The position numbers were made by a program, and so were the translations under genes. 37,292 bases of DNA. It comes from a virus (lineage: Duplodnaviria > Heunggongvirae > Uroviricota > Caudoviricetes). The DNA is taken from IMG/VR virus record IMGVR_UViG_2703718872_000034. One strand, written 5' to 3'. Below are positions 1 to 16,427 of the stretch, piece after piece (within the stretch, counting starts at the first letter, position 1; each line of letters begins with the position of its first letter). Under the pieces are notes generated by a model. That model worked only from the letters and a program-made list of their open reading frames with translations, made no database searches and was not told the DNA's origin.

Positions 1-2091
1 ATGTATGTCATTGCAAAAGAACTGATTGGCGCGCCCGGAATGCCTGCTACAACAAAAGGTATTCGCCAGGCATTACAACGTTACGTACAAGGGAAAAGCT
101 GTTGTTCCCGTCGTCGCTCAGGCTCTAAAGCAACTGAATACAGCATCGACTGTTTACCTGAAGTGACGCAGCAGGCATTACGTGAACGCTATGCCCTGCA
201 ACTGATGACGCAAAAAGCCGATGAATCACCGGCTCCGGTGGTGACAAAGGCCAGGCGCTCACCTGCCGTGGTTGATGCGGTGGAGGCATATCGCGGATCA
301 CCCCAACTGATGGTCGAACGCCTCAATGCCCTGACTGAAAATCAGCGCCAGGTGGCTGATGCACGAATCGCGATCGTCAGCGAAGTTCTGAAAGTCGCGC
401 AACAACCTGGTTTCAGCTGTGCGAAGGCTATCCGGTTTATCGTTGACAACCTGGCACGTTCGCAGCTGGACGAGCGCATTGTGGCAATGGTTGAGACGGC
501 GAACGCCAAAAAGGGAAACAGCCGCGCGTTGAGTGAAATCACGCTGAAACGCTGGATTGCAGCCTTTAACAAGGCGCAGAACGCCGCTGAACGCCTGCTT
601 TTGCTGGCACCGGGTAAACGCCAGGAAATAAAAGCCGAAGATATTAACTGGCTGCCCGAATTTCTGGCGCAGTATCGCCAGTCAAACGGCCGACCAATGA
701 CCGAGGCTTACGAGGATTTTGTTGCTGAATGGCAGCACCGGCACGCTGATGAGCCTTATATGCTCGATATCATGCCGTCTTATGACACCATTCGCCGCGC
801 AATGAAGAAACTGCCGGAAGTGGTGAAACAAAAAGGCCGGGTGACAGGCAGTGAATACCGTCAGCTTGAGGGATTCACGCGCCGCGACTGGTCCAGAATG
901 CCGGTGAATTATGTCTGGATTGGTGACGGTCACGGCATGAAGATGAAATGCAGGCACCCGGTTCACGGTCGGCCATTTGCACCGGAAGTGACCTTTGTTA
1001 TCGACGGTGGCACGCGCTTTGTGGTGGGCTGGAGCCTTGACCTGGCTGAAAATGTTTTCGCCGTAGCCGGTGCCATACAGCACGGCATTCGCCATCACGG
1101 CAAACCGTTTCTGTATTACTCGGATAACGGCTCCGGGGAAACCGCCGACATCCTGGATAAGGAGGTTGTGGGGATCCTGCCGCGACTGGGGATTAATCAC
1201 CCAACCGGGATTGCCGGTAACCCGCAGGGACGGGGCATTATCGAACGGCTTAACCGCACGTTACCGATGCGCATAGCCCGTAAATACCGCACCTATATCG
1301 GGAAAGGTGCAGATCGCGAGACGTTACGCAAAACCAACCGCGATTTACGCTCGGCATTTACTGCCCTGCAACAGGGCAAACGGCTGAACGCCCGGCAGCA
1401 GTCAGCGATGCGTGATTTACCGTCCTGGTCTGAACTGATTGATGCCATTCGTGACGGTGTTGAGTGGTACAACAACCGGCCGCACGATGAATTACCCATG
1501 AAGCCGAACGGGAAACATTACAGCCCGGCGGAGTTCAGAAAAAAACGCCTGGCGGAAGAGGACACTGAAATTGAATGGCTGTCCGATGTTGAGCTGCGGG
1601 ATATGTTCCGGCCGATGGTGGAACGCCCTGTAAGACGCTGTGAAATACGCTGGCTGAATAATATTTACTACGCGCCCGAGCTGCGTGATGAGCATGGCCG
1701 CAAGGTGCTTATCAGCTATGACATTCATGATGCCGAACGAATTACCGTACGTCGCCTGGATGGCAGCGTGATTTGCGAGGCGGTATGGGACGGTAATAAA
1801 CGCGAAGCCTTCCCGGTCAGCGCGGAATACTACAAACAGCAGCAACGCCTTAAAGGCATGCGTAAACGCGCAGAGGAAAAAATCCGCGATGCTGAGGATG
1901 AAGTGGTTAACGTGCTGGAGCACAAGCCGCAGGAGCCATGGCTGGAAAACATCTACCGCCCGGTGGGTAATACGGTGACCGTTCAGCGACCAGCCGTTGA
2001 TGATGAACCTGATGAAGAATACGAGCGTAATTTCCAGCGGGGATTGCAGTTGCTGGAAGCGAAATTAAAAGAAAATGACCCGCTGGCCTGA
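1..2091 (+). CDS. A: Mu-type transposase A
   Basis: 696-aa ORF; N-terminus resembles the MuA N-terminal DNA-binding region; WIGDGHG segment matches the region of the first catalytic Asp of MuA; followed by a MuB-like gene; start coincides with window edge so the true start could lie upstream. Confidence 0.88.
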   Translation: MYVIAKELIGAPGMPATTKGIRQALQRYVQGKSCCSRRRSGSKATEYSIDCLPEVTQQALRERYALQLMTQKADESPAPVVTKARRSPAVVDAVEAYRGSPQLMVERLNALTENQRQVADARIAIVSEVLKVAQQPGFSCAKAIRFIVDNLARSQLDERIVAMVETANAKKGNSRALSEITLKRWIAAFNKAQNAAERLLLLAPGKRQEIKAEDINWLPEFLAQYRQSNGRPMTEAYEDFVAEWQHRHADEPYMLDIMPSYDTIRRAMKKLPEVVKQKGRVTGSEYRQLEGFTRRDWSRMPVNYVWIGDGHGMKMKCRHPVHGRPFAPEVTFVIDGGTRFVVGWSLDLAENVFAVAGAIQHGIRHHGKPFLYYSDNGSGETADILDKEVVGILPRLGINHPTGIAGNPQGRGIIERLNRTLPMRIARKYRTYIGKGADRETLRKTNRDLRSAFTALQQGKRLNARQQSAMRDLPSWSELIDAIRDGVEWYNNRPHDELPMKPNGKHYSPAEFRKKRLAEEDTEIEWLSDVELRDMFRPMVERPVRRCEIRWLNNIYYAPELRDEHGRKVLISYDIHDAERITVRRLDGSVICEAVWDGNKREAFPVSAEYYKQQQRLKGMRKRAEEKIRDAEDEVVNVLEHKPQEPWLENIYRPVGNTVTVQRPAVDDEPDEEYERNFQRGLQLLEAKLKENDPLA

Positions 2092-2167
2092 AATAAAAAA
2101 ATAACCCGAGCGGCGACTCAGGTTATTTGATTAAACAAAGGTATCTATATAAACGCGAGGTAATAAT

Positions 2168-3100
2168 ATGACCGATATTAACGATGTAATCAAGACCATT
2201 GATGAACTTATTGATGGCGGCGTACTGACGCAGTATGTCATCGCCAGAGAGGCGGGAATTTCCGACGGCACATTATCGGCTTTCCGCAAAGGGAAATATA
2301 AAGGAGACAATGATGCTATAGCAGCGACTATGCTCTCCTGGTACAAAGACTGGAAAAAGCGGCCTTCCCTGCCGGAACCGCCGCAGTTTGTGGAGACACC
2401 GACGGTACGGGAACTGCGGGCGGTGTTTCAGGCGGCACGCCTGATGGGCTGTATTAACATCATTGTGGGCGTACCAGGTGTGGGTAAAACAGTCACCGCC
2501 AGCAATTATTGTCAGGAGCAACCGAACACCTGGATGATCACCCTGTCTCCCGCGCATTCCAGCGTCACTGAGTGTCTGCTGGAGCTGGCAGAGGAGCTGG
2601 GGATTGATTACACCCGCGCGAACAAGGGGGCGTTATCCCGCGCCATCCGCCGTCGCCTGATGGGAACGCGTGGACTGGTGATTGTGGATGAGGCGGATCA
2701 TCTTGGTATTGACGGTCTGGAGCAGATCCGGGCAATCCAGGACGCCACGAGTGTAGGGATGGTGCTTATCGGTAACCCGAAAGGACTGTTCTCAGAATCG
2801 CGTAGTGACACGAATAATTTAGCACGCCTGTTCAGCCGTATTGCCAGGGTTAAACAGTTGCATGAGGCCAAAAAAGAGGATGTGCTGGATATTGCCGGAG
2901 CATGGGGTATCAGTGGAGAGGAAGAGCTGGACGCCATGCAGGCTATCGCTGAAAAACCGGGAGCATTACGCGTTCTGACACATACGCTTAACCAGGCATG
3001 GATCGCTGCCAGCGGTGAAGGTACGACGCTGACAAAAAAACACATTAATACGGCCTTTAAAGAGGTTTATACAGAACCCGATTCGCTATTAAAGGTGTGA
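2168..3100 (+). CDS. B: transposition ATPase MuB-like
   Basis: 310 aa, Walker A GVPGVGKT, size and position immediately after A as in Mu; RBS GAGG upstream of ATG. Confidence 0.88.
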   Translation: MTDINDVIKTIDELIDGGVLTQYVIAREAGISDGTLSAFRKGKYKGDNDAIAATMLSWYKDWKKRPSLPEPPQFVETPTVRELRAVFQAARLMGCINIIVGVPGVGKTVTASNYCQEQPNTWMITLSPAHSSVTECLLELAEELGIDYTRANKGALSRAIRRRLMGTRGLVIVDEADHLGIDGLEQIRAIQDATSVGMVLIGNPKGLFSESRSDTNNLARLFSRIARVKQLHEAKKEDVLDIAGAWGISGEEELDAMQAIAEKPGALRVLTHTLNQAWIAASGEGTTLTKKHINTAFKEVYTEPDSLLKV

Positions 3101-3102
3101 TT

Positions 3103-3324
3103 ATGGTTGTATTTAATATTCCTGATATTTACGGACGCTTTTACCTGATTAATTTCGATAACGTGAAGGTGATTTCACTGGCCGAAAATAAAGAATGTGG
3201 CGATTTACTTTTTGAATTTAATGACCGCACACGAATGGTGATATCTGCCGGACTTGATCGCGAAGGTGCGACAGAAGTTTACAGCGGAATATGCCGTTCT
3301 GTTGGTGCGAAACAAGTCAGCTAA
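3103..3324 (+). CDS. small early protein, possible Kil-like by position and size (73 aa)
   Basis: ORF overlapping B stop; first gene after B as kil is in Mu; no motif recognised. Confidence 0.35.
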   Translation: MVVFNIPDIYGRFYLINFDNVKVISLAENKECGDLLFEFNDRTRMVISAGLDREGATEVYSGICRSVGAKQVS

Positions 3325-3336
3325 ATGAGGTGTTAT

Positions 3337-3594
3337 ATGAATATGCAATCCTGCGGTAACAAAATGAATTTATTCGACTCCCTGAACAGCGCGCGCCGTC
3401 TGACCGAACTTGCCGGTGCGGTACTGGAACGCAGCAAACGCTACCCACAGCGCTTTGCACTGAAAACCACGCCGCCGGTAGGTGAGGTTCAGGGGAGTGG
3501 TGAGGAAATTGAAATCACCGTTAAGACCAACGGCCTGCGCCGCCGTGTGAAGGCCACCCGTATAAGCGGATGCACGGTTTACTGGGAAGTATGA
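3337..3594 (+). CDS. hypothetical early protein
   Basis: ORF with GAGG RBS before ATG at 3337; longer ORF from 3325 possible. Confidence 0.35.
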   Translation: MNMQSCGNKMNLFDSLNSARRLTELAGAVLERSKRYPQRFALKTTPPVGEVQGSGEEIEITVKTNGLRRRVKATRISGCTVYWEV

Positions 3595-3668
3595 AGTTGC
3601 TTCATGGTTCGGCTCTGTCATCAGGTCAGACGCCGGGTCAGTTATCCGAACAAAACGAGGACCAGAGG

Positions 3669-3941
3669 ATGAGTAAAGTCGTACGCATTATTTTCGAATA
3701 CAAGGAGCACGTTATCCATAAAAACGCGGATGGAACAGTGCACATGGGGGTAAGTCTGGACATACGTTCAACCGGGATAAAGCAGAAAGGTGATGGACCT
3801 GCCATGATTTTTGGGGTGGTTATGCTCGCGGAAAGCAGAGACTTTGCTGAACTTGTGGCAATGAAAGCCAGTGCGCTCATGAAAGATATGAACATGAGTT
3901 CCGGGGTTATTAAAGGTAATGAATTTAATCAGCAGGGGTAA
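3669..3941 (+). CDS. hypothetical early protein, paralogue 1 (MSKVVRIIFEY...)
   Basis: ORF with internal ATG preceded by GAGGA; N-terminus homologous to next gene. Confidence 0.45.
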   Translation: MSKVVRIIFEYKEHVIHKNADGTVHMGVSLDIRSTGIKQKGDGPAMIFGVVMLAESRDFAELVAMKASALMKDMNMSSGVIKGNEFNQQG

Positions 3942-3945
3942 TTCC

Positions 3946-4239
3946 ATGAGCAAAGTACGCGTTATTTTTGAATTTGACCACGTAATGCATGAAGTAAAGC
4001 CAGCCGGTAATGATAGTAAGGAAATCACGGAGGGGGTTACTGCCACGGTAAAAATCGAACGTAATACAGAGAACAGACCGGCAGGACCCTGTGATGTTTA
4101 TGCACAAATTCTTAAATATCACAGCCCCACAATTATTCAGTTTCTGACAGATGAACTACAGGGTTCCATGCAGGCTATGGGGGTGAAAAGCAGCATTGAG
4201 CGCCGTTCTTTGCAGAACGCACCAGATACATTGCAATAA
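3946..4239 (+). CDS. hypothetical early protein, paralogue 2 (MSKVRVIFEF...)
   Basis: ORF starting 5 nt after previous stop; shared N-terminal motif MSKV-R-IFE with preceding gene. Confidence 0.45.
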   Translation: MSKVRVIFEFDHVMHEVKPAGNDSKEITEGVTATVKIERNTENRPAGPCDVYAQILKYHSPTIIQFLTDELQGSMQAMGVKSSIERRSLQNAPDTLQ

Positions 4240-4250
4240 GGAAAAACAAA

Positions 4251-4781
4251 ATGGCTAAACGCGTTACAAAATTAAAGGCCGCAGCCGAGGCTGCACCACA
4301 GACCCGTGAAGAGGTTAGCCGCGATATCCGCACCCTGGGCGATATTCAGCGAGAGGCGCTGCGCCTGGAAACGGCAATGAATGATGAAGTGGCAGAAATC
4401 ACCGCCCGTTATACGCCGCAGATTGAAAACCTTAAAAAAGAAATCAAAGTGCTTTTTAAGGGGATTCAGGACTGGTGTAAAACCAACCGCGATGAGCTGA
4501 CGAACGGCGGCAAAACAAAAACTGCCAATCTGACCACCGGAACGGTGTCATGGCGGCTGGGAACGCCATCATGCAGCGTCAGCCGTGATGTGGAAGGTGT
4601 GATTGAAATGCTGCGCCGTATGGGCCTTGAGCGTTTCATCCGCACGAAAGAGGAAGTGAATAAGGAAGCGGTCCTGGCGGAGCCGGATGCGGTGAAAGGG
4701 ATTGCCGGTATTAAGGTGAATAAAGGTGCTGAAAGTTTTTATGTCGAGCCTTTTGAACAGGATGCCGGACTGAATAAATAA
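4251..4781 (+). CDS. gam: host-nuclease inhibitor Gam (Mu Gam family, Ku-like)
   Basis: 176 aa; strong similarity by recall to Mu Gam (RLETAMNDE..., ANRDELTNGGKTKTANL, RFIRTK-E-NKEA); RBS AAGGA. Confidence 0.85.
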   Translation: MAKRVTKLKAAAEAAPQTREEVSRDIRTLGDIQREALRLETAMNDEVAEITARYTPQIENLKKEIKVLFKGIQDWCKTNRDELTNGGKTKTANLTTGTVSWRLGTPSCSVSRDVEGVIEMLRRMGLERFIRTKEEVNKEAVLAEPDAVKGIAGIKVNKGAESFYVEPFEQDAGLNK

Positions 4782-4865
4782 CACTGCATTAATCAATTAA
4801 ATATCACTTCATTTTAATTATGGCGCTTGCGTCAGGGGACTGCTCGCGCCTGAATGAGGCATATC

Positions 4866-5444
4866 ATGAGTATAAAATATCGTTATTTTAAAATGAATGA
4901 GCGCGATTCCCGTCATTATCACAGGGAATGGCTTGATTGCGCTGGCAGGGAGCGCCAGAAATTGATTGATGATTTTCTCAGTAATCATAGAGCTAAAGGA
5001 TACCTTTACTTCTGGTGTTGTGGGCATATTTTTGTCACATCAATACTGGTTCATGAGGATGTTGATGTCGGAAGAAATAAGCGGGTGCTGTCTGATAAAT
5101 TTGATGAAGATGGCCGCGTTTTATTTTCAGTTAAGCCCGACCGCAGATTCAGAGAGGGAAAAAAACTGAACAAAGCACTGAATATCTTAAACGAGAAGTT
5201 AAAACAGCTTCCGTCATTCAGTACCTGGATGGTTAATAAACTGGACTGCTATTTTGAGGTTTTTGGTGTCAGCAACGGCCGCACAGTTATGGCGTGCTCT
5301 TCTGCCGGGTTCTATGGCGACAAAGGGGCTGTTGTGGTTCGTATTCCTGTCGGTGAATCAGATAATGCCTTTTCACCTGAAAAGCTGCATCCGTCATTGA
5401 TGGCAATCAAGCATTCCGAATTCATCGCAATAACGGAGGAATAA
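4866..5444 (+). CDS. hypothetical protein
   Basis: ORF preceded by AT-rich intergenic region; GAGG RBS before ATG at 4866 (alternative ATG 4854). Confidence 0.45.
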   Translation: MSIKYRYFKMNERDSRHYHREWLDCAGRERQKLIDDFLSNHRAKGYLYFWCCGHIFVTSILVHEDVDVGRNKRVLSDKFDEDGRVLFSVKPDRRFREGKKLNKALNILNEKLKQLPSFSTWMVNKLDCYFEVFGVSNGRTVMACSSAGFYGDKGAVVVRIPVGESDNAFSPEKLHPSLMAIKHSEFIAITEE

Positions 5445-5447
5445 TTC

Positions 5448-5981
5448 ATGATTGATGCAAAAGTGCTTGAAGGGGTTAAAAACTGGCTGCGTATTTACGG
5501 ACGTCTGACCTGCGGTGTTCTGGCTGAAAAAATGAATATGCCGCCATCCTCGATGGTTTATTTTCTGCGTGATGCGGTTGATGCCGGGGTGCTGACGGAA
5601 TGTAACGGTTTTTATGATATTCCGCGTCCCCGCCCGGTGCAGCCGGTTCGTCGCAAATGCAGCCAGGAAGGTGCGGCTGATGATGTTCAGTGGTGCAGCT
5701 TCAGAAAATCCCTGCCGTGGATTGAGGGGCATGATATTCCGTCGATGGCGTGGGAATTTGCTCAGGGCGTACTGACCTGCGAAACCGTTTATGTGGTGGC
5801 TGAAGTTGATGAGCAGGCCATGAAAGAAGGCGTGCCCCAGTTTGTGATGGCGTATATCGACATCCGCCTGGGCGTCATTATCTGCGGTTTAAGCGGCTGG
5901 AATATCACCTCGCGCGTTCTGCGTTACCTGATTGTTGACCGGACAGCGGCACCGGCCGCGATTTCTGCGGAGGTGGCGTAA
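5448..5981 (+). CDS. hypothetical protein, possible N-terminal winged-helix
   Basis: ORF tightly packed after previous gene; no family recognised. Confidence 0.45.
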   Translation: MIDAKVLEGVKNWLRIYGRLTCGVLAEKMNMPPSSMVYFLRDAVDAGVLTECNGFYDIPRPRPVQPVRRKCSQEGAADDVQWCSFRKSLPWIEGHDIPSMAWEFAQGVLTCETVYVVAEVDEQAMKEGVPQFVMAYIDIRLGVIICGLSGWNITSRVLRYLIVDRTAAPAAISAEVA

Positions 5982-6496
5982 TGTTCTTTAAAACTTCAAA
6001 CCCTTCCGCGCTGGCTGCGTGGCAAAAATACCAGCAGGACTGCCAGACGGTAAAAGATGAGGCAAAACGCCTTGAGGCTGTGCTGAATGTTGCGTGCCGC
6101 CCGGTATTTGTATCCGGTATCAGTGGATTTTGTTTTAAGGGGCTGCGCTTTATGGATGACAAATATCCTTTTCATCGCGACTTATGGAGAAAACCGACTG
6201 CGTCGAATGGCTGGAGCTGCACGCCGCGCACATCACGTATACCTAAAACCCTGCGTGTTGCCTCTGATGAACTGAACAGTCTGTGGCGTGAATATTCGCC
6301 CGTCACGTATGCCAGAACCGATGCGCTGTTGTTCTGGCTGGGCATTGACTTCTCGGCAATACTGTTTGGCCCCGTTAAGTGGTTCTGCGTTGACAATGTT
6401 ATTTACCTTCAGTGCGAAGATGATTCCGCAAAACGGAAAATGACCGAAATTCTGTCTGATGAGTTTTATGCTGCTGAAAAGCGAGTCAGGGGGTGA
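5981..6496 (+). CDS. hypothetical protein
   Basis: ORF with ATGA overlap to previous gene. Confidence 0.45.
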   Translation: MFFKTSNPSALAAWQKYQQDCQTVKDEAKRLEAVLNVACRPVFVSGISGFCFKGLRFMDDKYPFHRDLWRKPTASNGWSCTPRTSRIPKTLRVASDELNSLWREYSPVTYARTDALLFWLGIDFSAILFGPVKWFCVDNVIYLQCEDDSAKRKMTEILSDEFYAAEKRVRG

Positions 6497-6499
6497 TGT

Positions 6500-7051
6500 A
6501 TGATGATATTACAACCCATGGGACGAAAAGGTCGGGCACCCGCTCATGTCCGCGCATGGACACCTGAAGAAGATGCACTGCTGATTGCGCTTTATCCATC
6601 CACCCCGGTTAAGGATATTGCTGTCAGAGTAAAAAGAAGTTACTGGGGAGTATATAACCGGATTGTTTTATTACGCGGTACTTACCCGGAGTTGCTCAAA
6701 TGCAAACGTCCCAGATTTAAACATGATGAAGATAAATTTATCCGAAAAAATGCCAGAACAATGACCGGTAAGCAAATAGGAGAATATCTGGAGCGAGACC
6801 GGGATTCTGTCCACAATCGGGCGCGATATATTGGCGTAAGCATGAAAAAATACGGAGAATTACTGCCTTTTACCCGCATACCTGACGATGATGTTCATCT
6901 TATTCGTGAATTACGGGATGCTGAATCACCACGACGTCTTACCTTCCGGGAAATAGGCGAGAAATTTGAATTATCCGAGAGTACGGTGAATTTTATTTAT
7001 CACCATCGCCGGACTGCCGGGGATGTTGTATTACGGGAGTTAACGCCATGA
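6500..7051 (+). CDS. hypothetical protein with three internally repeated helix-turn-helix-like segments
   Basis: 183 aa; repeated segments PVKDIAVRVKRSYWGVYNRI / MTGKQIGEYLERDRDSVHNRARYIG / LTFREIGEKFELSESTVNFIYHHRR. Confidence 0.45.
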   Translation: MMILQPMGRKGRAPAHVRAWTPEEDALLIALYPSTPVKDIAVRVKRSYWGVYNRIVLLRGTYPELLKCKRPRFKHDEDKFIRKNARTMTGKQIGEYLERDRDSVHNRARYIGVSMKKYGELLPFTRIPDDDVHLIRELRDAESPRRLTFREIGEKFELSESTVNFIYHHRRTAGDVVLRELTP

Positions 7052-7380
7052 TAACGACCTTATTTGTTGAATCAGACGAACCTCTGGTATGTGCCGCCGG
7101 GATGCCGGTCTGTGGCGGAACCCTGACTGGGGTTTATTTCGGGGATTTGCGCGGTTATCCCTGGCATTCACTGAATGATGCTTTCCCGCCTGATATGGAG
7201 GCTGTTGTACTGATTGTTCAGTACGGTCACCGACAGGAGCTGCGCATCGGCCATATCGGGTATGAAGGTTTTTTTGTTGATGAAGAAACCGGAGCCTGCC
7301 TTGAAGATGAGGACGGACAGGTGACGCACTGGTGTCATATTTCGGCCTTACCGGAATTACAGGGGATACATAATGGATGA
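7048..7380 (+). CDS. hypothetical protein
   Basis: ORF overlapping previous stop by 4 nt. Confidence 0.4.
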   Translation: MITTLFVESDEPLVCAAGMPVCGGTLTGVYFGDLRGYPWHSLNDAFPPDMEAVVLIVQYGHRQELRIGHIGYEGFFVDEETGACLEDEDGQVTHWCHISALPELQGIHNG

Positions 7381-7513
7381 GCAAATTGTTGAATGTCCCA
7401 CCTGTGGAAATGAGGCTCCGGAGTATCTGAAAGAGTGCCCACATTGTGGTGAGGTAAAATGTAATCACTGCGATATGGGCGACGACACTGCATGTATGAA
7501 TTGTGAGGATTAA
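7373..7513 (+). CDS. small Cys-rich protein (46 aa) with four CxxC pairs, zinc-ribbon-like
   Basis: Not in ORF track (<60 aa); ATG at 7373 overlaps previous gene end; translation MDEQIVECPTCGNEAPEYLKECPHCGEVKCNHCDMGDDTACMNCED. Confidence 0.4.
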   Translation: MDEQIVECPTCGNEAPEYLKECPHCGEVKCNHCDMGDDTACMNCED

Positions 7514-7517
7514 TAAT

Positions 7518-7805
7518 ATGGAAAAAGAAATCAAATTTGCTCCTAAAGATATCGACGAAGAACTGGCTAAAATCGGCATGCTTGAACGTATGCGGGACAT
7601 TATCGAATATGCGATAAAAGAAAATCTTGCAGCCAGAGAAGCCCTTTTGATAATGGAGCGGGAGATTAACCTGATTAAGGATGCTGTATCTCTGGATAAT
7701 AAAATAGCCCGCGAGGAATACGTTCGCCGCAGGCTCGGTGTTGATGGTTCAGCAATTCTTACATCTGAACATTATGCAAAAATTTTTAATCTTTTTCAGC
7801 GGTAA
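7518..7805 (+). CDS. hypothetical helical protein
   Basis: ORF, ATG at 7518 just after previous stop; 3' end overlaps convergent minus-strand ORF. Confidence 0.4.
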   Translation: MEKEIKFAPKDIDEELAKIGMLERMRDIIEYAIKENLAAREALLIMEREINLIKDAVSLDNKIAREEYVRRRLGVDGSAILTSEHYAKIFNLFQR

Positions 7806-8025
7806 TCCCCATGCAGGCCCGGAGATTGTCGAAATGCCAGTCGGTATTAATATATGAGCCATCCTGGATCTCTTCTGCATTTTCCGGGGTAGAGTTTTTT
7901 TGAGCGAGATTGATAATATGTATTGCCTCCTCACGGGAAATAACCCCCTTATCGAACAGGGTTACCATAAGATTTCCAGCCATTGTGAATGCGGCAACAT
8001 CAAGGGCATTTTTTATATCTGACAT
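7786..8025 (-). CDS. hypothetical protein (79 aa) encoded antisense to the early operon
   Basis: Minus-strand ORF with AAGGAA RBS about 8 nt upstream of ATG; only minus-strand gene in the early region. Confidence 0.4.
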   Translation of the reverse strand: MSDIKNALDVAAFTMAGNLMVTLFDKGVISREEAIHIINLAQKNSTPENAEEIQDGSYINTDWHFDNLRACMGITAEKD

Positions 8026-8053
8026 AGATTTTTCCTTTTATGTTAATTGACAT

Positions 8054-8081
8054 GGCGGTGCGGTAACACCGCCCATTTTTT
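8054..8081 (+). terminator. intrinsic-terminator-like hairpin (GGCGGTG / CACCGCC, loop CGGTAA) followed by T6
   Basis: Perfect 7-bp GC-rich inverted repeat plus TTTTTT read directly from sequence, 15 bp upstream of the GemA-like start. Confidence 0.45.
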
Positions 8082-8095
8082 ATGGAGCCACGATA

Positions 8096-8608
8096 ATGAA
8101 TCGCGCTTCCCTGATTACCTTAATACATGTCGCAAAACGCGATCTACAGCTTGACCGGGAGACCTATACATCCGCGCTGCTGGCAGCCACCGGCAAAACC
8201 AGCTGCCGGGATATGTCACCGGATGAGTTATCCCGCGTGCTGGATGTTTTCAAAAAACGCGGTTTTAAAGTGCGTCAGAACCCGGTTAACCGGGCCTTAA
8301 AACCGGGTACAGTGACCGCTAAAATTCGCGCCATCTGGAAGGTGATGCACCGGCAGGGCTTTATCTCTGATGGTGCGGAAACCGCTCTTAACCGCTGGGT
8401 GAAATCGCAGACGGCCGCGCAGAACGGCGGCGAAGGTGTGGCAAACTGGCAGTGGCTGGAGCAACACCCCGCCCTGGCCTCAGATGTGCTGGAGCGTCTC
8501 AAGCGATGGCACCGCCGCAAAATGCTGGCCGCGATGGGAATGCCCGAACGCACGCTGATGGGGTATGACGCCGTTTGCAGGCAGTATGAAAAATCACTTC
8601 CCCGTTAA
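8096..8608 (+). CDS. GemA-like protein (Mu gp16 family)
   Basis: 170-aa ORF in the position of Mu gemA, before the Mor/C gene; GGAG RBS; family assignment by recall only. Confidence 0.55.
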   Translation: MNRASLITLIHVAKRDLQLDRETYTSALLAATGKTSCRDMSPDELSRVLDVFKKRGFKVRQNPVNRALKPGTVTAKIRAIWKVMHRQGFISDGAETALNRWVKSQTAAQNGGEGVANWQWLEQHPALASDVLERLKRWHRRKMLAAMGMPERTLMGYDAVCRQYEKSLPR

Positions 8609-8612
8609 CCCC

Positions 8613-8644
8613 AAATCCCGCCACAACGCGGGATTTTTATTTTA
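8613..8644 (+). terminator. rho-independent terminator (9-bp stem AAATCCCGC / GCGGGATTT, loop CACAAC, T-rich tail)
   Basis: Perfect inverted repeat followed by TTTATTTT, immediately after GemA-like stop. Confidence 0.7.
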
Positions 8645-8677
8645 AACTTACCGGGAACGCGAGAACCGGAGGCTGAT

Positions 8678-9103
8678 ATGGCAGAAACTCAGATGAGCAT
8701 GTTTGGTGGTGACAGTGAGCAACTGCACGCCCTTATCGACCGCCTTGATGACATCCCTGATGATGTTCTCAAAAAGAACTGGCCGCGGACCCTGTCTGAA
8801 CTGGTTGAAGTCACCGGCGCAGAACTTCAGCGTCAGGGGATTGAGCCGGTACTGGCCGGTAAACTGGCACGCAAGGTGGCTGCGGCTCAGGCAGCCTATA
8901 TGGGCGGACGGGGTTATTACCTGCCGGTCGGGGAATCTCTCTTTGCCGAGCTGCGAAACAATGAGATATTTTCGCGCTGGGACCGGGGCGAGAAGATTGA
9001 ATCCCTTCGCCGCCATTACCGGATGTCAGAAACCCAGATTTATACCGTCATACGTGAACAGCGCCGTCTGCATCTGGCAAGAACGCAACCGCCACTTTTC
9101 TGA
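8678..9103 (+). CDS. Mor/C-family transcriptional activator of middle/late genes
   Basis: 141 aa; C-terminal HTH-like segment SLRRHYRMSETQIYTVIREQRR typical of Mor/C family; located just upstream of lys; GGAGG RBS; cannot decide between Mor and C. Confidence 0.7.
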   Translation: MAETQMSMFGGDSEQLHALIDRLDDIPDDVLKKNWPRTLSELVEVTGAELQRQGIEPVLAGKLARKVAAAQAAYMGGRGYYLPVGESLFAELRNNEIFSRWDRGEKIESLRRHYRMSETQIYTVIREQRRLHLARTQPPLF

Positions 9104-9174
9104 TATTCCGCAAAGCCTGCCGCCTTTCCTTCACCGTTACGCTGACTCAGAGAACATCATGAGACAGCGTAACA

Positions 9175-9675
9175 ATGCCAAAACTCCCCGCACCACTGCG
9201 TAAAAAGCTGATTGCCCTTGTTCTGGCCGGTGCCGGGACGTTCACGATTGCCACGCATTACACCGGTTACTGGGAAGGGAAAGAAAACTCCACGTATATC
9301 GATCCCACCGGTACACCCACCATCTGTTACGGCCATACCGGCCCGGATGTGAAACCGGGTATGACCCTGACGGATGAAGAATGTCTGAAACTGCTGGAAA
9401 AGGACATGAAATGGGCCTTTGCGGCCATTGATCGGCGTGTTCAGGTGCCGCTTACCCGTGGTCAGACGGTGGCGCTGGCTTCGTGGATCTTCTGGGCCGG
9501 TGAAACGAACTTTCGCAACTCCACGCTTCTGCGCCTGATCAATGCCGGACAGATGCCCGCGTCCTGTAAGCAGTATATCCGCTGGATTTATTCAAAGGGG
9601 GTGAAACTTCCCGGCCTTGAGGCCCGCCGTTCGGCGGATGAATGGTTATGTCGCTACGACTTGCCGAAAGTCTGA
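9175..9675 (+). CDS. lys: SAR endolysin (phage lysozyme, T4-lysozyme-like fold)
   Basis: 166 aa; N-terminal hydrophobic signal-anchor LIALVLAGAGTFTIA then E...D...T catalytic spacing (WEGKE, YID, TGTPT). Confidence 0.85.
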   Translation: MPKLPAPLRKKLIALVLAGAGTFTIATHYTGYWEGKENSTYIDPTGTPTICYGHTGPDVKPGMTLTDEECLKLLEKDMKWAFAAIDRRVQVPLTRGQTVALASWIFWAGETNFRNSTLLRLINAGQMPASCKQYIRWIYSKGVKLPGLEARRSADEWLCRYDLPKV

Positions 9676-9748
9676 ACCGCTTCTGGCGACCGCTCATGAT
9701 AGCGCTGCTGTGTGCGGTACTGCTGTTACGGGGTGTCCTGTGGCTGCG

Positions 9749-10138
9749 GTGAATAACGCCTTACCGGCCCTGATTGCCGGGGCGTGCATGGCGGCGCTGG
9801 GGACTATCGCTGTACTGGTTGCCGCGATATGGGGAATGCACCAGAAGACGCAGCGCCTTGAAGACAATAATCAGGTGCTTGTGCGTGAGCGGGATGAGGC
9901 GCGTCAGGTGCTGGCAAATCAGCAGCACACCCTGCAACTCATTTCACAAATCAGTGAGGCGGCCACGAATGAAAAACAACAGAACATTCAGCACAGCGAG
10001 GGGCAGCAGAGCGTTGTCCGCCGGTCGCTGGCAGCAGTGCCTGCGGCCTCTGCCCCTGTTCCTGATGATGTGGCTGATCGGGTGCGCCGGGCCGTCTGTG
10101 AAATACGTGCCTGTGAAGCCGGTGCCGATCCCCGCTGA
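9749..10138 (+). CDS. i-spanin (Rz-like), start uncertain
   Basis: N-terminal TM segment ALIAGACMAALGTIAVLVAAIW followed by Q/E/R-rich helical region; GTG at 9749 proposed, ATG at 9617 is the alternative. Confidence 0.45.
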   Translation: MNNALPALIAGACMAALGTIAVLVAAIWGMHQKTQRLEDNNQVLVRERDEARQVLANQQHTLQLISQISEAATNEKQQNIQHSEGQQSVVRRSLAAVPAASAPVPDDVADRVRRAVCEIRACEAGADPR

Positions 10139-10340
10139 ATGGCTGGCTGACTGCCTGGTCCCTCCTGCGCCGGAGCCGTTCACGTTTGGGGCATCGGTCA
10201 CTTACAACCTGCAACTGCTGGCGGTGATCAAGAACTGCAACGTGGACAAGGCCAGTATTCGTCGTCTGGAGGCGCGGCGACAACATGAATTTACTGATAT
10301 GGCCGGAACGCCTGCTGTTCCGGCAGGAAAGACGAAGTAA
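9969..10340 (+). CDS. o-spanin (Rz1-like outer-membrane lipoprotein), overlapping i-spanin in another frame
   Basis: Signal peptide ending in lipobox-like LIGC, Pro-rich mature region; overlapped spanin architecture. Confidence 0.55.
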   Translation: MKNNRTFSTARGSRALSAGRWQQCLRPLPLFLMMWLIGCAGPSVKYVPVKPVPIPAEWLADCLVPPAPEPFTFGASVTYNLQLLAVIKNCNVDKASIRRLEARRQHEFTDMAGTPAVPAGKTK

Positions 10341-10350
10341 GGAAAAAGGT

Positions 10351-10578
10351 ATGGATGATTCAGATCGTGCTCAGGCTGTGATGGAGCGGGGATCAGAACG
10401 CGCCCTTTGTAACCGGCTGACACGTAAGCGCCAGGCAATGGATGCTCCGGGCAGACGTGTCTGCGCGGACTGTGGCGGAGAGATCCCCGCCGCACGTCTT
10501 GTTGCTGTGCCGGATGCCATCCGTTGTGTGAACTGCCAGAACATCATGGAGGCCCGTCATGTGGGTCAGCATCGTTAA
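10351..10578 (+). CDS. TraR/DksA-family C4 zinc-finger protein
   Basis: 75 aa with CADCGGEIP...RCVNCQ (CxxC-x17-CxxC); RBS AAGGAAAAAGG before ATG 10351. Confidence 0.65.
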   Translation: MDDSDRAQAVMERGSERALCNRLTRKRQAMDAPGRRVCADCGGEIPAARLVAVPDAIRCVNCQNIMEARHVGQHR

Positions 10579-10867
10579 AGATTATGTTGTGCCGATCCTT
10601 TCGGCGACGGCAACCGCTGGCGGGATATTCATGGCGCTGATGCGCAAAACGTTTGTCCCCCGCGAGGCCTTTGAAAAACTCTCCGACCGCGTTGAGAAGG
10701 TGGAAACCCGCCTGTCGTCACTGCCGACAGAAGCCGAGGTCAACCGTCTGAATGTGGAAATCGTGACCCTGCGGGGTGAACTGAAAACCACGAACGCCAC
10801 GCTCCGCTCTGTCTCCTATCAGAACGAACTGCTGCTGGAGCAGGCTGTAAGGAAAAAAACACAATGA
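10559..10867 (+). CDS. membrane protein with N-terminal TM helix and C-terminal coiled coil (Mu gp25-like position)
   Basis: 102 aa; hydrophobic N-terminus VVPILSATATAGGIFMALM; follows TraR-like gene as in Mu. Confidence 0.5.
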   Translation: MWVSIVKDYVVPILSATATAGGIFMALMRKTFVPREAFEKLSDRVEKVETRLSSLPTEAEVNRLNVEIVTLRGELKTTNATLRSVSYQNELLLEQAVRKKTQ

Positions 10868-11154
10868 GTGATTTCATTACTGAAGATCAGCGTCTTGTCA
10901 TTCTGCGGTCGCTGGCGGATTACAACGGCGAACTGGGTGAATCCGTGCTCCAGGACTGTCTGGATGATTACGGTCACCGCGTGTCCCGCGACACCGTTCA
11001 TACTCATATTGCCTGGCTTGCCGAGCAGGGGCTGGTGCGTAAGCGCACGCTCGTTAATGGTTATTTCATCGCTGAACTGACCGGCCGGGGTCAGGATGTG
11101 GCGGAAGGCCGCGCCACCGTTCCGGGTGTGAAGAAACCACGCGCAAGGGGGTAA
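10864..11154 (+). CDS. hypothetical protein (Mu gp26-like position)
   Basis: 96-aa ORF with ATGA overlap to previous gene. Confidence 0.5.
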   Translation: MSDFITEDQRLVILRSLADYNGELGESVLQDCLDDYGHRVSRDTVHTHIAWLAEQGLVRKRTLVNGYFIAELTGRGQDVAEGRATVPGVKKPRARG

Positions 11155-11156
11155 CG

Positions 11157-11738
11157 ATGGATAAGCCAACGCGTGGCCGTGTACGCAAGGTGGACTTGCT
11201 CCCCGACAGCATCCGTAAGCCACTGCTGGAAATGCTGCGTGAAAAACGTCTGACGCAGGTCCAGATACGCGAGGAAATCAACCGTCTGATCCGTGAGGCG
11301 GGCCTGCCGGAAGAGCAGCAGCTTTCACCGGCGGCCATCAGCCGGGAAGCCTCCCGTAATGAGCTGATTGCCCGTAACCTGCGTGATTTACGCGAGCAGA
11401 CAAAAGCCATGATGGCCGAACTGGGGGACAAGCCGACCGGTGAAACCACTGCACTGATTCTGGAAATGTCCCGCGCCCTGATGTACCGCCGTCTGCGTGC
11501 CGCAACCGAATCCCTGAACAGTGACAGCGACGTGGATATGCGTCTTATTAAGGACATCCTCCTGTCAGCACAGCGTGCGGAAAGTGCCGCCGAGCGCAGC
11601 ATTAAGCGTGAAAAAGAAATCCGGGCCGCATTTGCTGAAGAGATGGCAAACGCGGTCACCGACGAGCTGCGCGGCGTGGACGGGATGAGTGAACAGCTTG
11701 AGTCCCGTATTAAGGGAATTCTGTTGGGTAAAGCCTGA
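11157..11738 (+). CDS. terminase small subunit-like protein (Mu gp27-like)
   Basis: 193 aa, highly charged, immediately upstream of large terminase with overlapping stop/start. Confidence 0.6.
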   Translation: MDKPTRGRVRKVDLLPDSIRKPLLEMLREKRLTQVQIREEINRLIREAGLPEEQQLSPAAISREASRNELIARNLRDLREQTKAMMAELGDKPTGETTALILEMSRALMYRRLRAATESLNSDSDVDMRLIKDILLSAQRAESAAERSIKREKEIRAAFAEEMANAVTDELRGVDGMSEQLESRIKGILLGKA

Positions 11739-13402
11739 TGAATAACGCCGAAGAACTCTCCCCCTTACTGACGAATACCGTCTCCACCCGCAAAATTGAT
11801 CTGGCCGGTGAAAAAGCCCTGCTGGGCGTGGATGTGCCGGACAGCCTTGATTTGCCCGGTGATATGCCGGTGTTTCTGGATTATCAGGCCCGCTGGTTTG
11901 AGGATGAAAGCGAAGTCTGCATCGCGGAAAAATCCCGACGCACCGGGCTTACCTGGGCGGAAGCCGGGCGTAACGTCATTACCGCTGCAAAACCGAAGCG
12001 GCGTGGTGGCCGCAATGTGTTTTATGTGGGGTCAAAGCAGGAGATGGCACTGGAATATATTTCTGCCTGCGCACTGTTCTCCCGTGCCTTTAACCAGCTG
12101 GCCGATGCTGATGTGTATGAGCAGACCTTCTGGGATCGGGATAAAAAAGAAGAAATTCTGACCTACATGATCCGCTTTCCGAACAGTGGATTCAAAATTC
12201 AGGCACTGTCTTCCCGTCCGTCAAACCTGCGCGGCCTTCAGGGGGATGTGGTGATTGATGAAGCCGCGTTCCACGAGTCACTGGATGAGCTTCTCAAGGC
12301 GGCAATGGCGCTCACCATGTGGGGCGCGCGCGTGCGTATTATCTCCACGCATAACGGCGTCGATAATCTGTTTAATCAGTACATTCAGGAAGCCCGCGAG
12401 GGACGCAAGGATTACAGTGTCCACCGCATAACCCTGGATGATGCCATTGCGGACGGGCTGTACCGTCGTATCTGTTATGTCACCGGCCGCGAATGGTCAC
12501 CGGAAAGCGAGCAGAAGTGGCGTGATGATCTCTACAAAAACGCCCCGACCCGTGAGGATGCCGACGAGGAATACGGCTGTATCCCGAAAAAATCCGGCGG
12601 TGCCTATATTCCTCACGCGCTTATTGAAATGGCGATGATCCGCGACATCCCGATTCTGACGTTTGAAGCCCCGGACGACTTCATCAGCCGTGCCGCATGG
12701 CTGCGTGAATCGGAGGTTTTAACCTGGTGTGAAGAACATTTAAAACCGCTTTTAGAGGCGTTAAATCCCCGTTCCCGCTTCAGCTTCGGGGAAGACTTTG
12801 CCCGCACCGGTGACCTCTCCTGCTTTGTGCTGCTGGAAATCACTGAATCCCTGGCAAAACGCGAGGTGTTTCGCGTGGAGCTGCGTAACCTGCCATATGC
12901 CCAGCAGGAGCAGGTGATGATGTACATCCTGACCCGCGTTCCGGCGCTGGTCGGTGCGGCGTTCGACGCCACCGGTAACGGCGGCTATCTGGCCGAAGCC
13001 GCGCTGCTGGCCTTTGGCCCGGACATCATCGACTGCGTGATGTTATCGCCGAAGTGGTACGGCGAGTGGATGCCAAAACTGAAGGCCGAGTTTGAGGATC
13101 AGAATATCCTCGTCGCCCGCCATCAGACCACGCTTGATGATTTGCGCCATGTGAAGGTGGTGAACGGTATCCCGCAAATCGACAAGGGGCGTACGAAGGA
13201 CCAGAACGCAACGGCTGTGAACGCCCGCCGCCATGGTGATTTTGCCGTGGCGCTCTGTATGGCAAACCGGGCGTCATACATGGAGGGCTTCATCCTGGAT
13301 GAATCAGCCTGTCAGGCGCTGCCGGAGCGGTCGCGGGCAATGGAGGGCGGTTATCGTGATGACGATGAGGCATATCATGAATTTGATCGGGGGTGCTGGT
13401 AG
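11738..13402 (+). CDS. terminase large subunit
   Basis: 554 aa; position and size as Mu gp28; ATPase/nuclease-type layout, e.g. VVIDEAAFH segment. Confidence 0.85.
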   Translation: MNNAEELSPLLTNTVSTRKIDLAGEKALLGVDVPDSLDLPGDMPVFLDYQARWFEDESEVCIAEKSRRTGLTWAEAGRNVITAAKPKRRGGRNVFYVGSKQEMALEYISACALFSRAFNQLADADVYEQTFWDRDKKEEILTYMIRFPNSGFKIQALSSRPSNLRGLQGDVVIDEAAFHESLDELLKAAMALTMWGARVRIISTHNGVDNLFNQYIQEAREGRKDYSVHRITLDDAIADGLYRRICYVTGREWSPESEQKWRDDLYKNAPTREDADEEYGCIPKKSGGAYIPHALIEMAMIRDIPILTFEAPDDFISRAAWLRESEVLTWCEEHLKPLLEALNPRSRFSFGEDFARTGDLSCFVLLEITESLAKREVFRVELRNLPYAQQEQVMMYILTRVPALVGAAFDATGNGGYLAEAALLAFGPDIIDCVMLSPKWYGEWMPKLKAEFEDQNILVARHQTTLDDLRHVKVVNGIPQIDKGRTKDQNATAVNARRHGDFAVALCMANRASYMEGFILDESACQALPERSRAMEGGYRDDDEAYHEFDRGCW

Positions 13403-16306: not shown

Positions 16307-16427
16307 CGGTCAGTGGCGGGGGTCGAACCCGCATACATGATCCACCCGGAGGCAGGCACCGACTTTACCAGTTAAGCGTACACTGACCGCCTGTTTATTT
16401 TATATTCATCCTTTATGCGGAGGCAAT

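Follow-up and report, generated by a model that had tools for sequence, protein, structure and literature searches.

A conserved antisense gp15-like gene and strand-specific hairpins at the gp14/gemA boundary of a Mu-like Escherichia coli prophage

The viral record IMGVR_UViG_2703718872_000034 (37,292 nt; "the window" below means this whole stretch) is a Mu-like (Mu-type transposable) prophage of E. coli. We analyzed the junction where its early operon meets gemA. Here a minus-strand open reading frame (ORF) overlaps the last early gene, and a G+C-rich hairpin, T1, precedes the gemA start. This junction is the conserved gp14/gp15/gemA operon boundary of Mu and its relatives, and no new kind of element or system. 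Judged by profile homology, the minus-strand ORF (7786..8025) is a divergent homologue of Mu gp15 (Mup15). It is predicted to be an independent transcription unit converging on the early operon, because it has a Shine-Dalgarno sequence and a conserved terminator that is fully paired only as minus-strand RNA. For T1, the most likely role, to which we give about even credence, is that of a plus-strand terminator or attenuator at the boundary of the early operon with gemA. Two of the features described below, the terminator of the antisense gene within the gp14-like gene and a second hairpin (T2) 3′ of gemA, go beyond what was noticed in the initial annotation of this DNA.

The boundary hairpin is conserved ahead of gemA

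T1 (GGCGGTG-cggtaa-CACCGCC, 8054..8073) has a 7-bp stem with six G-C pairs, a 6-nt loop and a folding energy of -12.4 kcal/mol. It is followed by CA, a run of six T (8076..8081) and the gemA ATG at 8096. The initial annotation had described a hairpin plus T6 directly in front of a GemA-like gene, and its coordinates hold. The exact motif occurs once in the window. Taken alone, T1 is not beyond chance: 16 terminator-like matches were found in 1..12000, vs. 13.0 ± 4.2 in shuffled sequences, and the local folding z-score is -1.1. We judge T1 to be real because many related phages have it at this position, with compensatory changes in the stem.

In Mu and D108, GGCGGTG-ttgcag-CACCGCC is spaced from the gemA Shine-Dalgarno sequence just as T1 is in the window (the Mu copy is at 8193..8212). 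Comparing this interval with the two phages, as had been suggested, revealed the same junction, the antisense gene and an equivalent hairpin in both. The stem is also found in a Citrobacter braakii prophage and in many viral contigs, approximately 10-15 nt before the gemA ribosome site, and 18 distinct upstream sequences contain a version of it. Every one of the 77 cells in the stem alignment of 11 representative variants is paired. Compensatory changes are present at two pairs, from T-A to C-G (loci L023 and L090) and from G-C to U-A (L090). All three of the one-sided changes (L005, L023, L059) produce a G.U pair on the plus strand, which would be A.C on the other strand. The loop varies freely. 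Read-through from the early operon into gemA had been expected to cross this structure, and a conserved plus-strand RNA structure does occupy that position.

The tail of T1 is always pyrimidine- or T-rich, and its quality is very variable. It is CATTTTTT in the window (T6), TCTTTTTTTT in the C. braakii prophage (L005, T8) and TCTTTTT or TCTTTTTC in others. Weak tails are found in Mu (CCCTTTCC, T3), D108 (TCTTTCC) and L090 (TTTAACC). Of the hallmarks of an intrinsic terminator, T1 has the G+C-rich stem, the short loop, the U-tract and RNA-type conservation, and the U-tract is not conserved family-wide. Rfam returned nothing at the gathering score in the whole window; in 7000..9400 the only match was Trp_leader (E 4.8), over T2. 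Scanning viral contigs for the conserved block at the gemA ribosome site, used as a DNA pattern, recovered no further hairpin variants. Pairing of the pyrimidine tail with the gemA Shine-Dalgarno sequence, which would sequester the latter, was seen in some folds, was weak and inconsistent, and was rejected.

The antisense gene is a member of the gp15 family

The minus-strand ORF overlaps the upstream plus-strand gene at 7786..7805, the 20 bp previously reported, and the good ribosome-binding site claimed for it is AAGGA (8037..8033 on the minus strand), 7 nt from the ATG. It had also been called the only minus-strand early gene. In agreement, the Prokaryotic Genome Annotation Pipeline (PGAP) annotation of an identical sequence contains no other minus-strand coding sequence (CDS) between the transposase and the late genes. 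The ORF is conserved across relatives, as expected of a real gene.

We gathered minus-strand ORFs abutting gemA from about 100 Mu-like loci. They form a single family with a common N-terminal motif and a second conserved helix. The profile of the group that includes the window and D108 matched that of the Mu-like group in hhalign with a probability of 96.5% (E 7.9e-10). Hidden Markov model (HMM) searches in both directions between the two groups resulted in E-values of 1e-6 to 1e-10 (Z=1), and the Mu-group HMM matched the window protein at E 1.3e-9 (Z=1). A pairwise BLASTP of the 79-aa protein against Mu gp15 was not significant (E 0.36). Against the 119-aa minus-strand ORF of D108 it gave E 6e-7, with 39% identity over 33 aa. 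Despite this low protein identity, the window and D108 have in common the block TTCCTTTTATGTTA around the Shine-Dalgarno sequence of the antisense gene. In D108 (L002, NC_013594), there is an unannotated 377-bp gap between gene 14 and gemA. The gap holds the 119-aa gp15-family ORF (L002 2366..2725, minus strand; about 7853..8212 of the record), which has its own hairpin and T6 terminator.

Coding of the 79-aa ORF is supported because its length is kept with third-position-biased changes and because intact forms dominate the database. In L038 the ORF length is retained at 52% amino acid identity, with 28/20/43 substitutions by codon position. The intact database forms have 33 and 32 member sequences, and the frameshifted forms 1-2 each. 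Frameshifted variants P0005 and P0007-P0010 break at or near an A7 run (T7 on the plus strand) at 7895..7901 and then continue in an alternative frame. Phase variation at this run is unlikely, as the frameshifted forms are rare and are broken at several different sites. These variants are probably sporadic decay or assembly errors.

The product is predicted to be a small three-helix protein. The AlphaFold2 model has a predicted local distance difference test score (pLDDT) of 75, with helices at residues 2-25, 31-44 and 62-71. The protein has no Pfam match, no PADLOC defence model and no recognisable DNA-binding domain. Against the PDB, nothing better than E 0.1 was obtained by sequence and nothing better than E 5 by Foldseek. 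The gp15 family is tiny: 10 matches by single sequence, 23 by profile and 34 representatives among 1.84 billion proteins. A literature search found no paper on Mu gp15. Homology between gp15 and the DUF2513 gene that occupies the same slot in other phages was considered and rejected (hhalign probability 7.8%).

The antisense gene has its own terminator-like hairpin

Read on the minus strand, the gp15-like gene is followed by a hairpin, AGCCUGCG..CGCGGGCU (7735..7728 pairing with 7713..7706), and a U-rich tail, AUUUUAUU (7705..7698). The fold has an energy of -15.7 kcal/mol and starts 53 nt along the 110-nt stretch that follows the coding sequence, counted from the antisense stop codon. A hairpin with a U-rich tail is present in nine of nine gp15 types examined, at a distance of 14-56 nt counted in the same way. 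This includes D108, even though its DNA at this site and the gp14 residues that the DNA encodes are different. Taken as minus-strand RNA, the outer 8 bp are paired in 71 of 72 cells, vs. 62 of 72 as plus-strand RNA, and compensatory changes occur at positions 4 and 6. The GenBank record AF083977 places a TransTermHP terminator at the homologous site of Mu (7839..7873). A hairpin also lies 3′ of the stop codon in the DUF2513 loci, but with tails that are only weakly U-rich.

Distribution across Mu-like loci and cassette exchange

We compared 69 distinct gemA-upstream regions. An antisense gene (gp15 or DUF2513) and a G+C-rich hairpin occur together in 20 of them, and neither occurs in 31. None of the 31 distinct loci in which a plus-strand gene abuts gemA has the GGCGG-type hairpin. 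Eight DUF2513 loci (31-nt spacer) lack the G+C-rich hairpin and have a short AT-rich inverted repeat instead. In L047, L049, L054, L076 and L078, the sequence TCTCAT-N8-ATGAGA lies about 31 nt before the gemA ATG, with the DUF2513 antisense gene adjoining. Ten regions were scored as having a hairpin without an antisense gene, and seven of these carry the GGCGG-type hairpin. In six of the seven (L028, L044, L046, L087, L094, L104) the antisense gene is truncated or deleted, and in L035 it is intact and was missed by the pattern. L046, L087, L094 and L104 are four independent deletion derivatives in which most or all of the antisense gene is lost and the hairpin and a short left spacer are kept. 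The association of the antisense gene with the hairpin has a Fisher p of 1.7e-4 among loci that are not phylogenetically independent.

The initial annotation suggested that the segment may be an inserted module. A foreign insertion does not fit, as gp13-gp14-gp15(antisense)-hairpin-gemA is the canonical arrangement in Mu and D108. What survives of the idea is a mosaic, exchangeable stretch. In an O157-type prophage with flanks that are 95-98% identical, another plus-strand block is present, in which a gene overlaps gemA and neither an antisense gene nor a hairpin is found. The replaced stretch is 7058..8122 relative to this prophage and 7364..8076 relative to L023, which has a DUF2513 antisense gene. 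G+C content is 40-43% across 7320..8040 vs. 50-61% in the flanks. The slot is also filled by a DUF2513 antisense gene in L005, and at least two unrelated antisense families use it. We read the gp13-gp14-gp15-hairpin-gemA order as the ancestral Mu/D108 arrangement, which would be an inserted module only in a limited sense.

Promoter search and the second hairpin

The initial annotation proposed either regulated termination or an independent promoter for gemA and the Mor/C genes. Mu supplies a precedent for such a promoter in the 'semi-early promoter' of AF083977, but the promoter prediction that had been called for, on both strands of 8026..8095, gave nothing convincing for sigma-70. A consensus scan found no promoters in 8026..8140, for gp15 on the minus strand or otherwise. 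A TTGACA at 8047..8052 is without a usable -10 element at 16-19 bp. A position weight matrix (PWM) scan, made with no background comparison, produced weak matches only, in AT-rich sequence; those on the minus strand were also not conserved.

T2, a stronger terminator-like hairpin than T1, lies between gemA and the Mor/C-family gene. It consists of AAATCCCGC-cacaac-GCGGGATTT (8613..8636) followed by the tail TTATTTTAAA, with a folding energy of -12.9 kcal/mol. T2 is kept with stem changes in L043 and L046, and it is absent from Mu-type phages, including Mu and D108, in which gemA and mor overlap. With T1 before and T2 after it, gemA is bracketed by two terminator-like hairpins in this phage group.

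Proposed function of the boundary and alternatives

If T1 is a boundary terminator or attenuator, some of the early (Pe-type) transcripts would, once past gp15 in the antisense direction, end at T1 with its U6 tail. This would uncouple gemA, and the Mor/C activator beyond T2, from the early operon. Expression of gemA would then be via read-through, via a local promoter like the Mu 'semi-early' promoter, or both. Given U-tails from T3 to T8, the strength of the stop appears tunable from phage to phage. While Pe is repressed in a lysogen, transcription of gp15 would run leftward; after induction, strong early transcription in the antisense direction would be expected to silence it.

Several points weigh against termination at T1, which we infer from sequence only. 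The covariation amounts to few independent events, three compensatory and three wobble cells in 11 sequences. The tails of Mu and D108 are poor U-tracts (CCCTTTCC and TCTTTCC), and the early transcript of Mu is described as reaching about 9.2 kb; the conserved stem may therefore have a role other than termination. No convincing sigma-70 promoter was detected for gemA or gp15 in the scans above, and a transcript starting just upstream of T1 would itself meet the terminator. Furthermore, O157-type relatives have neither the hairpin nor the antisense gene and manage without them, so the element is dispensable.

Such a different role could be in RNA stability or processing, a possibility that we rate clearly below termination but above the other alternatives. 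T1 would be the 5′ stem-loop of a gem mRNA that starts at a promoter over the gp15 start region, or the 3′ protective stem of a processed early mRNA, and the U-tail would be incidental. This would suit a stem that is kept strictly even where the U-tail is weak, as in Mu and D108, and that stays in place with its spacer in the four deletion derivatives. It would also suit the weak plus-strand promoter-like matches just upstream of the hairpin in 6/13 loci, with the -10 ending 44-53 nt before the gemA ATG (in the window, CTGACA-17-GTTAAT with a start near 8054), and the 'semi-early promoter' of Mu, whose annotation ends 5 nt past the hairpin. However, these matches are low-scoring and set in AT-rich sequence, the consensus scan finds no promoter there, and a tail of T6 (window) or T8 (L005) should terminate transcripts that contain the whole hairpin, which would defeat such a promoter. 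It is unlikely that the inverted repeat acts as DNA, i.e., as an operator for a dimeric phage or host protein on divergent gp15 and gemA promoters. The arms of T1 form a perfect 7-bp palindrome, the intergenic region that holds it is divergent and 70 bp long, and the symmetric changes in both arms are also expected of half-sites in a co-evolving palindromic operator. The dyad in the Mu middle promoter has been reported as the Mor binding site, and the Mu terminator dyad at 9179..9200 is inside this Mor-activated promoter. Yet 3/11 variants (L005, L023, L059) break the DNA symmetry and keep a G.U pairing that is possible on the plus strand only. The same stem accompanies Mu-type, D108-type and L052-type gp15 genes, the DUF2513 gene of L005 (with one G.U change) or no antisense gene; thus, T1 is not a cargo-specific operator. 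The gp15-like protein itself also lacks a recognisable DNA-binding domain.

We find it more doubtful still that T1 is only a conserved junction at which Mu-like phages swap accessory cassettes by recombination, with no regulatory role. Homology to relatives with other cassettes does resume at or just after the hairpin (8077 for L023, 8123 for L022), and unrelated antisense families do fill the slot, but in a mere joint pairing would not stay at 100% across compensatory and wobble changes as the loop drifts, nor would the distance to the gemA ribosome site stay fixed. Least probable of these alternatives is that the 79-aa ORF is not a gene and that the true feature is on the plus strand, as implied by AF083977, which annotates Mu_54 (7960..8127, plus strand) instead of gp15. 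The opposite frame is open for 66-71 codons in Mu-type loci, a few database variants are frameshifted, and within Mu-type loci neither codon-position counts nor ORF openness discriminates between the two frames. In the window, however, no plus-strand ORF longer than 46 aa spans the region, and the L048 equivalent of Mu_54 has neither ATG nor stop. Distant minus-strand proteins share a significant profile match and keep their ORFs, and the intact forms far outnumber each frameshifted form. Overall, the comparative evidence favours the minus-strand gp15 of RefSeq over the plus-strand Mu_54 of the revised GenBank Mu record, because of the family-level protein homology, the Shine-Dalgarno sequence and the conserved minus-strand terminator. 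A wider proposal, which we consider speculative and improbable, is that the convergent pair forms a two-way lock on the lytic cascade. Early transcripts would cross gp15 in antisense and meet T1, gp15 transcripts would end in gp14, and the slot would hold interchangeable small prophage-expressed effectors (the gp15 family, DUF2513) with products that target the host or other phages. Leftward transcription of gp15 in the lysogen, together with T1, would keep leaky early transcripts from gemA and the Mor/C activator; once the prophage is induced, gp15 would be silenced by the early transcription.

Comparison with known systems

In the RefSeq record of Mu (NC_000929), Mup15 (gp15, 88 aa, NP_050619.1) is on the minus strand at 7896..8162, overlaps Mup14 (7655..7957) by 62 bp and is 70 nt from gemA. 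The antisense gene of the window is similar in that it converges on and overlaps gp14, lies about 70 nt from the gemA ATG, is of similar size (79 vs. 88 aa) and has profile homology in the N-terminal ~40 residues. Both genes have a terminator hairpin downstream and the GGCGGTG/CACCGCC hairpin upstream. They differ in the overlap with gp14, which is 20 bp in the window, and in the C-terminal half, which is very divergent.

The gem operon of Mu is the closest precedent for the other side of the boundary. In AF083977, the 'semi-early promoter' (8151..8217) covers the gp15 start and the whole of the equivalent hairpin (8193..8212), which as in the window sits in the intergenic region directly before gemA. 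The title of one paper describes the gem operon as constitutively expressed in lysogens. In contrast to Mu, where gemA and mor overlap, the window has T2 between gemA and the Mor/C gene, and its T1 tail is T6 rather than CCCTTTCC. The same GenBank record annotates the terminator of the Mu early operon (9179..9200) within the Mor-activated middle promoter Pm (9163..9233). As proposed for T1, a G+C-rich hairpin with a T-run ends one temporal unit, and in Mu the next unit starts there. Terminator-plus-restart is therefore the annotated form of another temporal boundary in Mu. Unlike T1, the Pm terminator has the sequence AAAGCCGG/CCGGCTTT and is located after mor, not before gemA.

The antisense gene can also be compared to accessory genes in other phages. 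Prophage 'morons' are independently transcribed accessory genes inserted in phage operons and have been described for lambdoid phages. The antisense gene is like a moron in its own terminator, low G+C content, variable presence among close relatives and opposite orientation. Unlike a moron, it occupies a slot that is ancestral to the Mu/D108 lineage and not a recent insertion, and no promoter was found for it by the scans.

The prophage, its genes and coordinates

The chromosome of E. coli 2015C-3121 matches positions 7400..8200 of the window with 100% identity. In that sequence, PGAP annotates a Mu-type prophage adjoining guaC; the window begins at its A gene. The annotated content includes transposase A, B, Gam, GemA ("gp16 family"), one Mor-family activator, lysozyme and morphogenesis genes. 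The features of the boundary region are listed in Table 1.

Table 1. Positions in the window of the genes and hairpins around the gp14/gp15/gemA boundary.
Feature	Position	Strand	Basis
Mu gp13 homologue, 46-aa four-cysteine zinc-ribbon ORF	7373..7513	+	phrog_5584 E 2.8e-27; weak zinc-ribbon Pfam matches
gp14 (E15) homologue, 95 aa, ATG; last plus-strand gene ahead of the boundary	7518..7805	+	PGAP WP_000409990.1; phrog_6075 E 3.7e-44
Intrinsic-terminator-like hairpin of the antisense gene, inside the gp14-like CDS	7698..7735	-	Fold and conservation
gp15-like antisense gene, 79 aa, ATG	7786..8025	-	PGAP WP_001280089.1, hypothetical; phrog_32893 full length, E 2.2e-45
Shine-Dalgarno AAGGA of the antisense gene, 7 nt ahead of ATG	8033..8037	-	Read from sequence
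Boundary hairpin T1 with CA and T6 (T6 at 8076..8081)	8054..8081	+	Sequence, folding, conservation
gemA Shine-Dalgarno GGAG, 2 nt past the T-run	8084..8087	+	Sequence; GGAG(G) kept at this position across loci
gemA (gp16 family), ATG at 8096	8096..8608	+	Pfam PF06252 GemA E 2.5e-28; 46% identity to Mu and D108 GemA
Second terminator-like hairpin T2 with tail	8613..8646	+	Folding; conservation in L043 and L046
Single Mor/C-family activator gene	8678..9103	+	Pfam PF08765 Mor E 2.8e-32; 27% identity to Mu Mor, E 3e-14
Phage lysozyme gene, right after the Mor/C-family gene	9175..9675		Pfam PF00959

At the DNA level, 7391..7738 is 72% identical to Mu and D108. The gp13-homologue ORF has no PGAP annotation in the identical E. 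coli record. The gp14-like protein is 49% identical to Mu gp14 over 94 aa (E 1e-30). Its gene starts at 7518 according to PGAP, and at a GTG at 7503 (7503..7805) in a mechanical ORF list. The 3′ part of this gene holds both the terminator of the antisense gene and the 20-bp overlap with it. The Mor/C-family activator is encoded by one gene directly before the lysozyme gene, whereas Mu has separate mor and C genes with the middle operon between them.

Two other sites in the window were noted. Between the head-morphogenesis and virion-morphogenesis genes, PGAP annotates a 'tRNA-OTHER' at 16308..16387 (minus strand) with a T-arm-like sequence, GCGGGTTCGACCCCCGC; neither ARAGORN nor Rfam (gathering threshold) reports anything at this site. 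A gp27-family gene at 11157..11738 (plus strand) is a pseudogene with an internal stop according to PGAP in the identical record vs. an uninterrupted 193-aa ORF in the mechanical ORF list.

Implications for Mu-like phages

For annotation, the odd antisense gene of this E. coli prophage becomes the counterpart of Mu gp15. As far as we could find, strand-specific conserved hairpins on both sides of gp15, with a variable U-tail, have not been described before. The value of these observations lies mainly in the annotation and in the experiments that they enable. The boundary before gemA has a layout that is defined and conserved, in which an antisense unit carrying its own terminator is followed by a plus-strand hairpin whose U-tail differs among phages. 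This layout offers a direct handle on the way in which Mu-like phages uncouple expression of gemA and of the Mor-type activator from the early operon.

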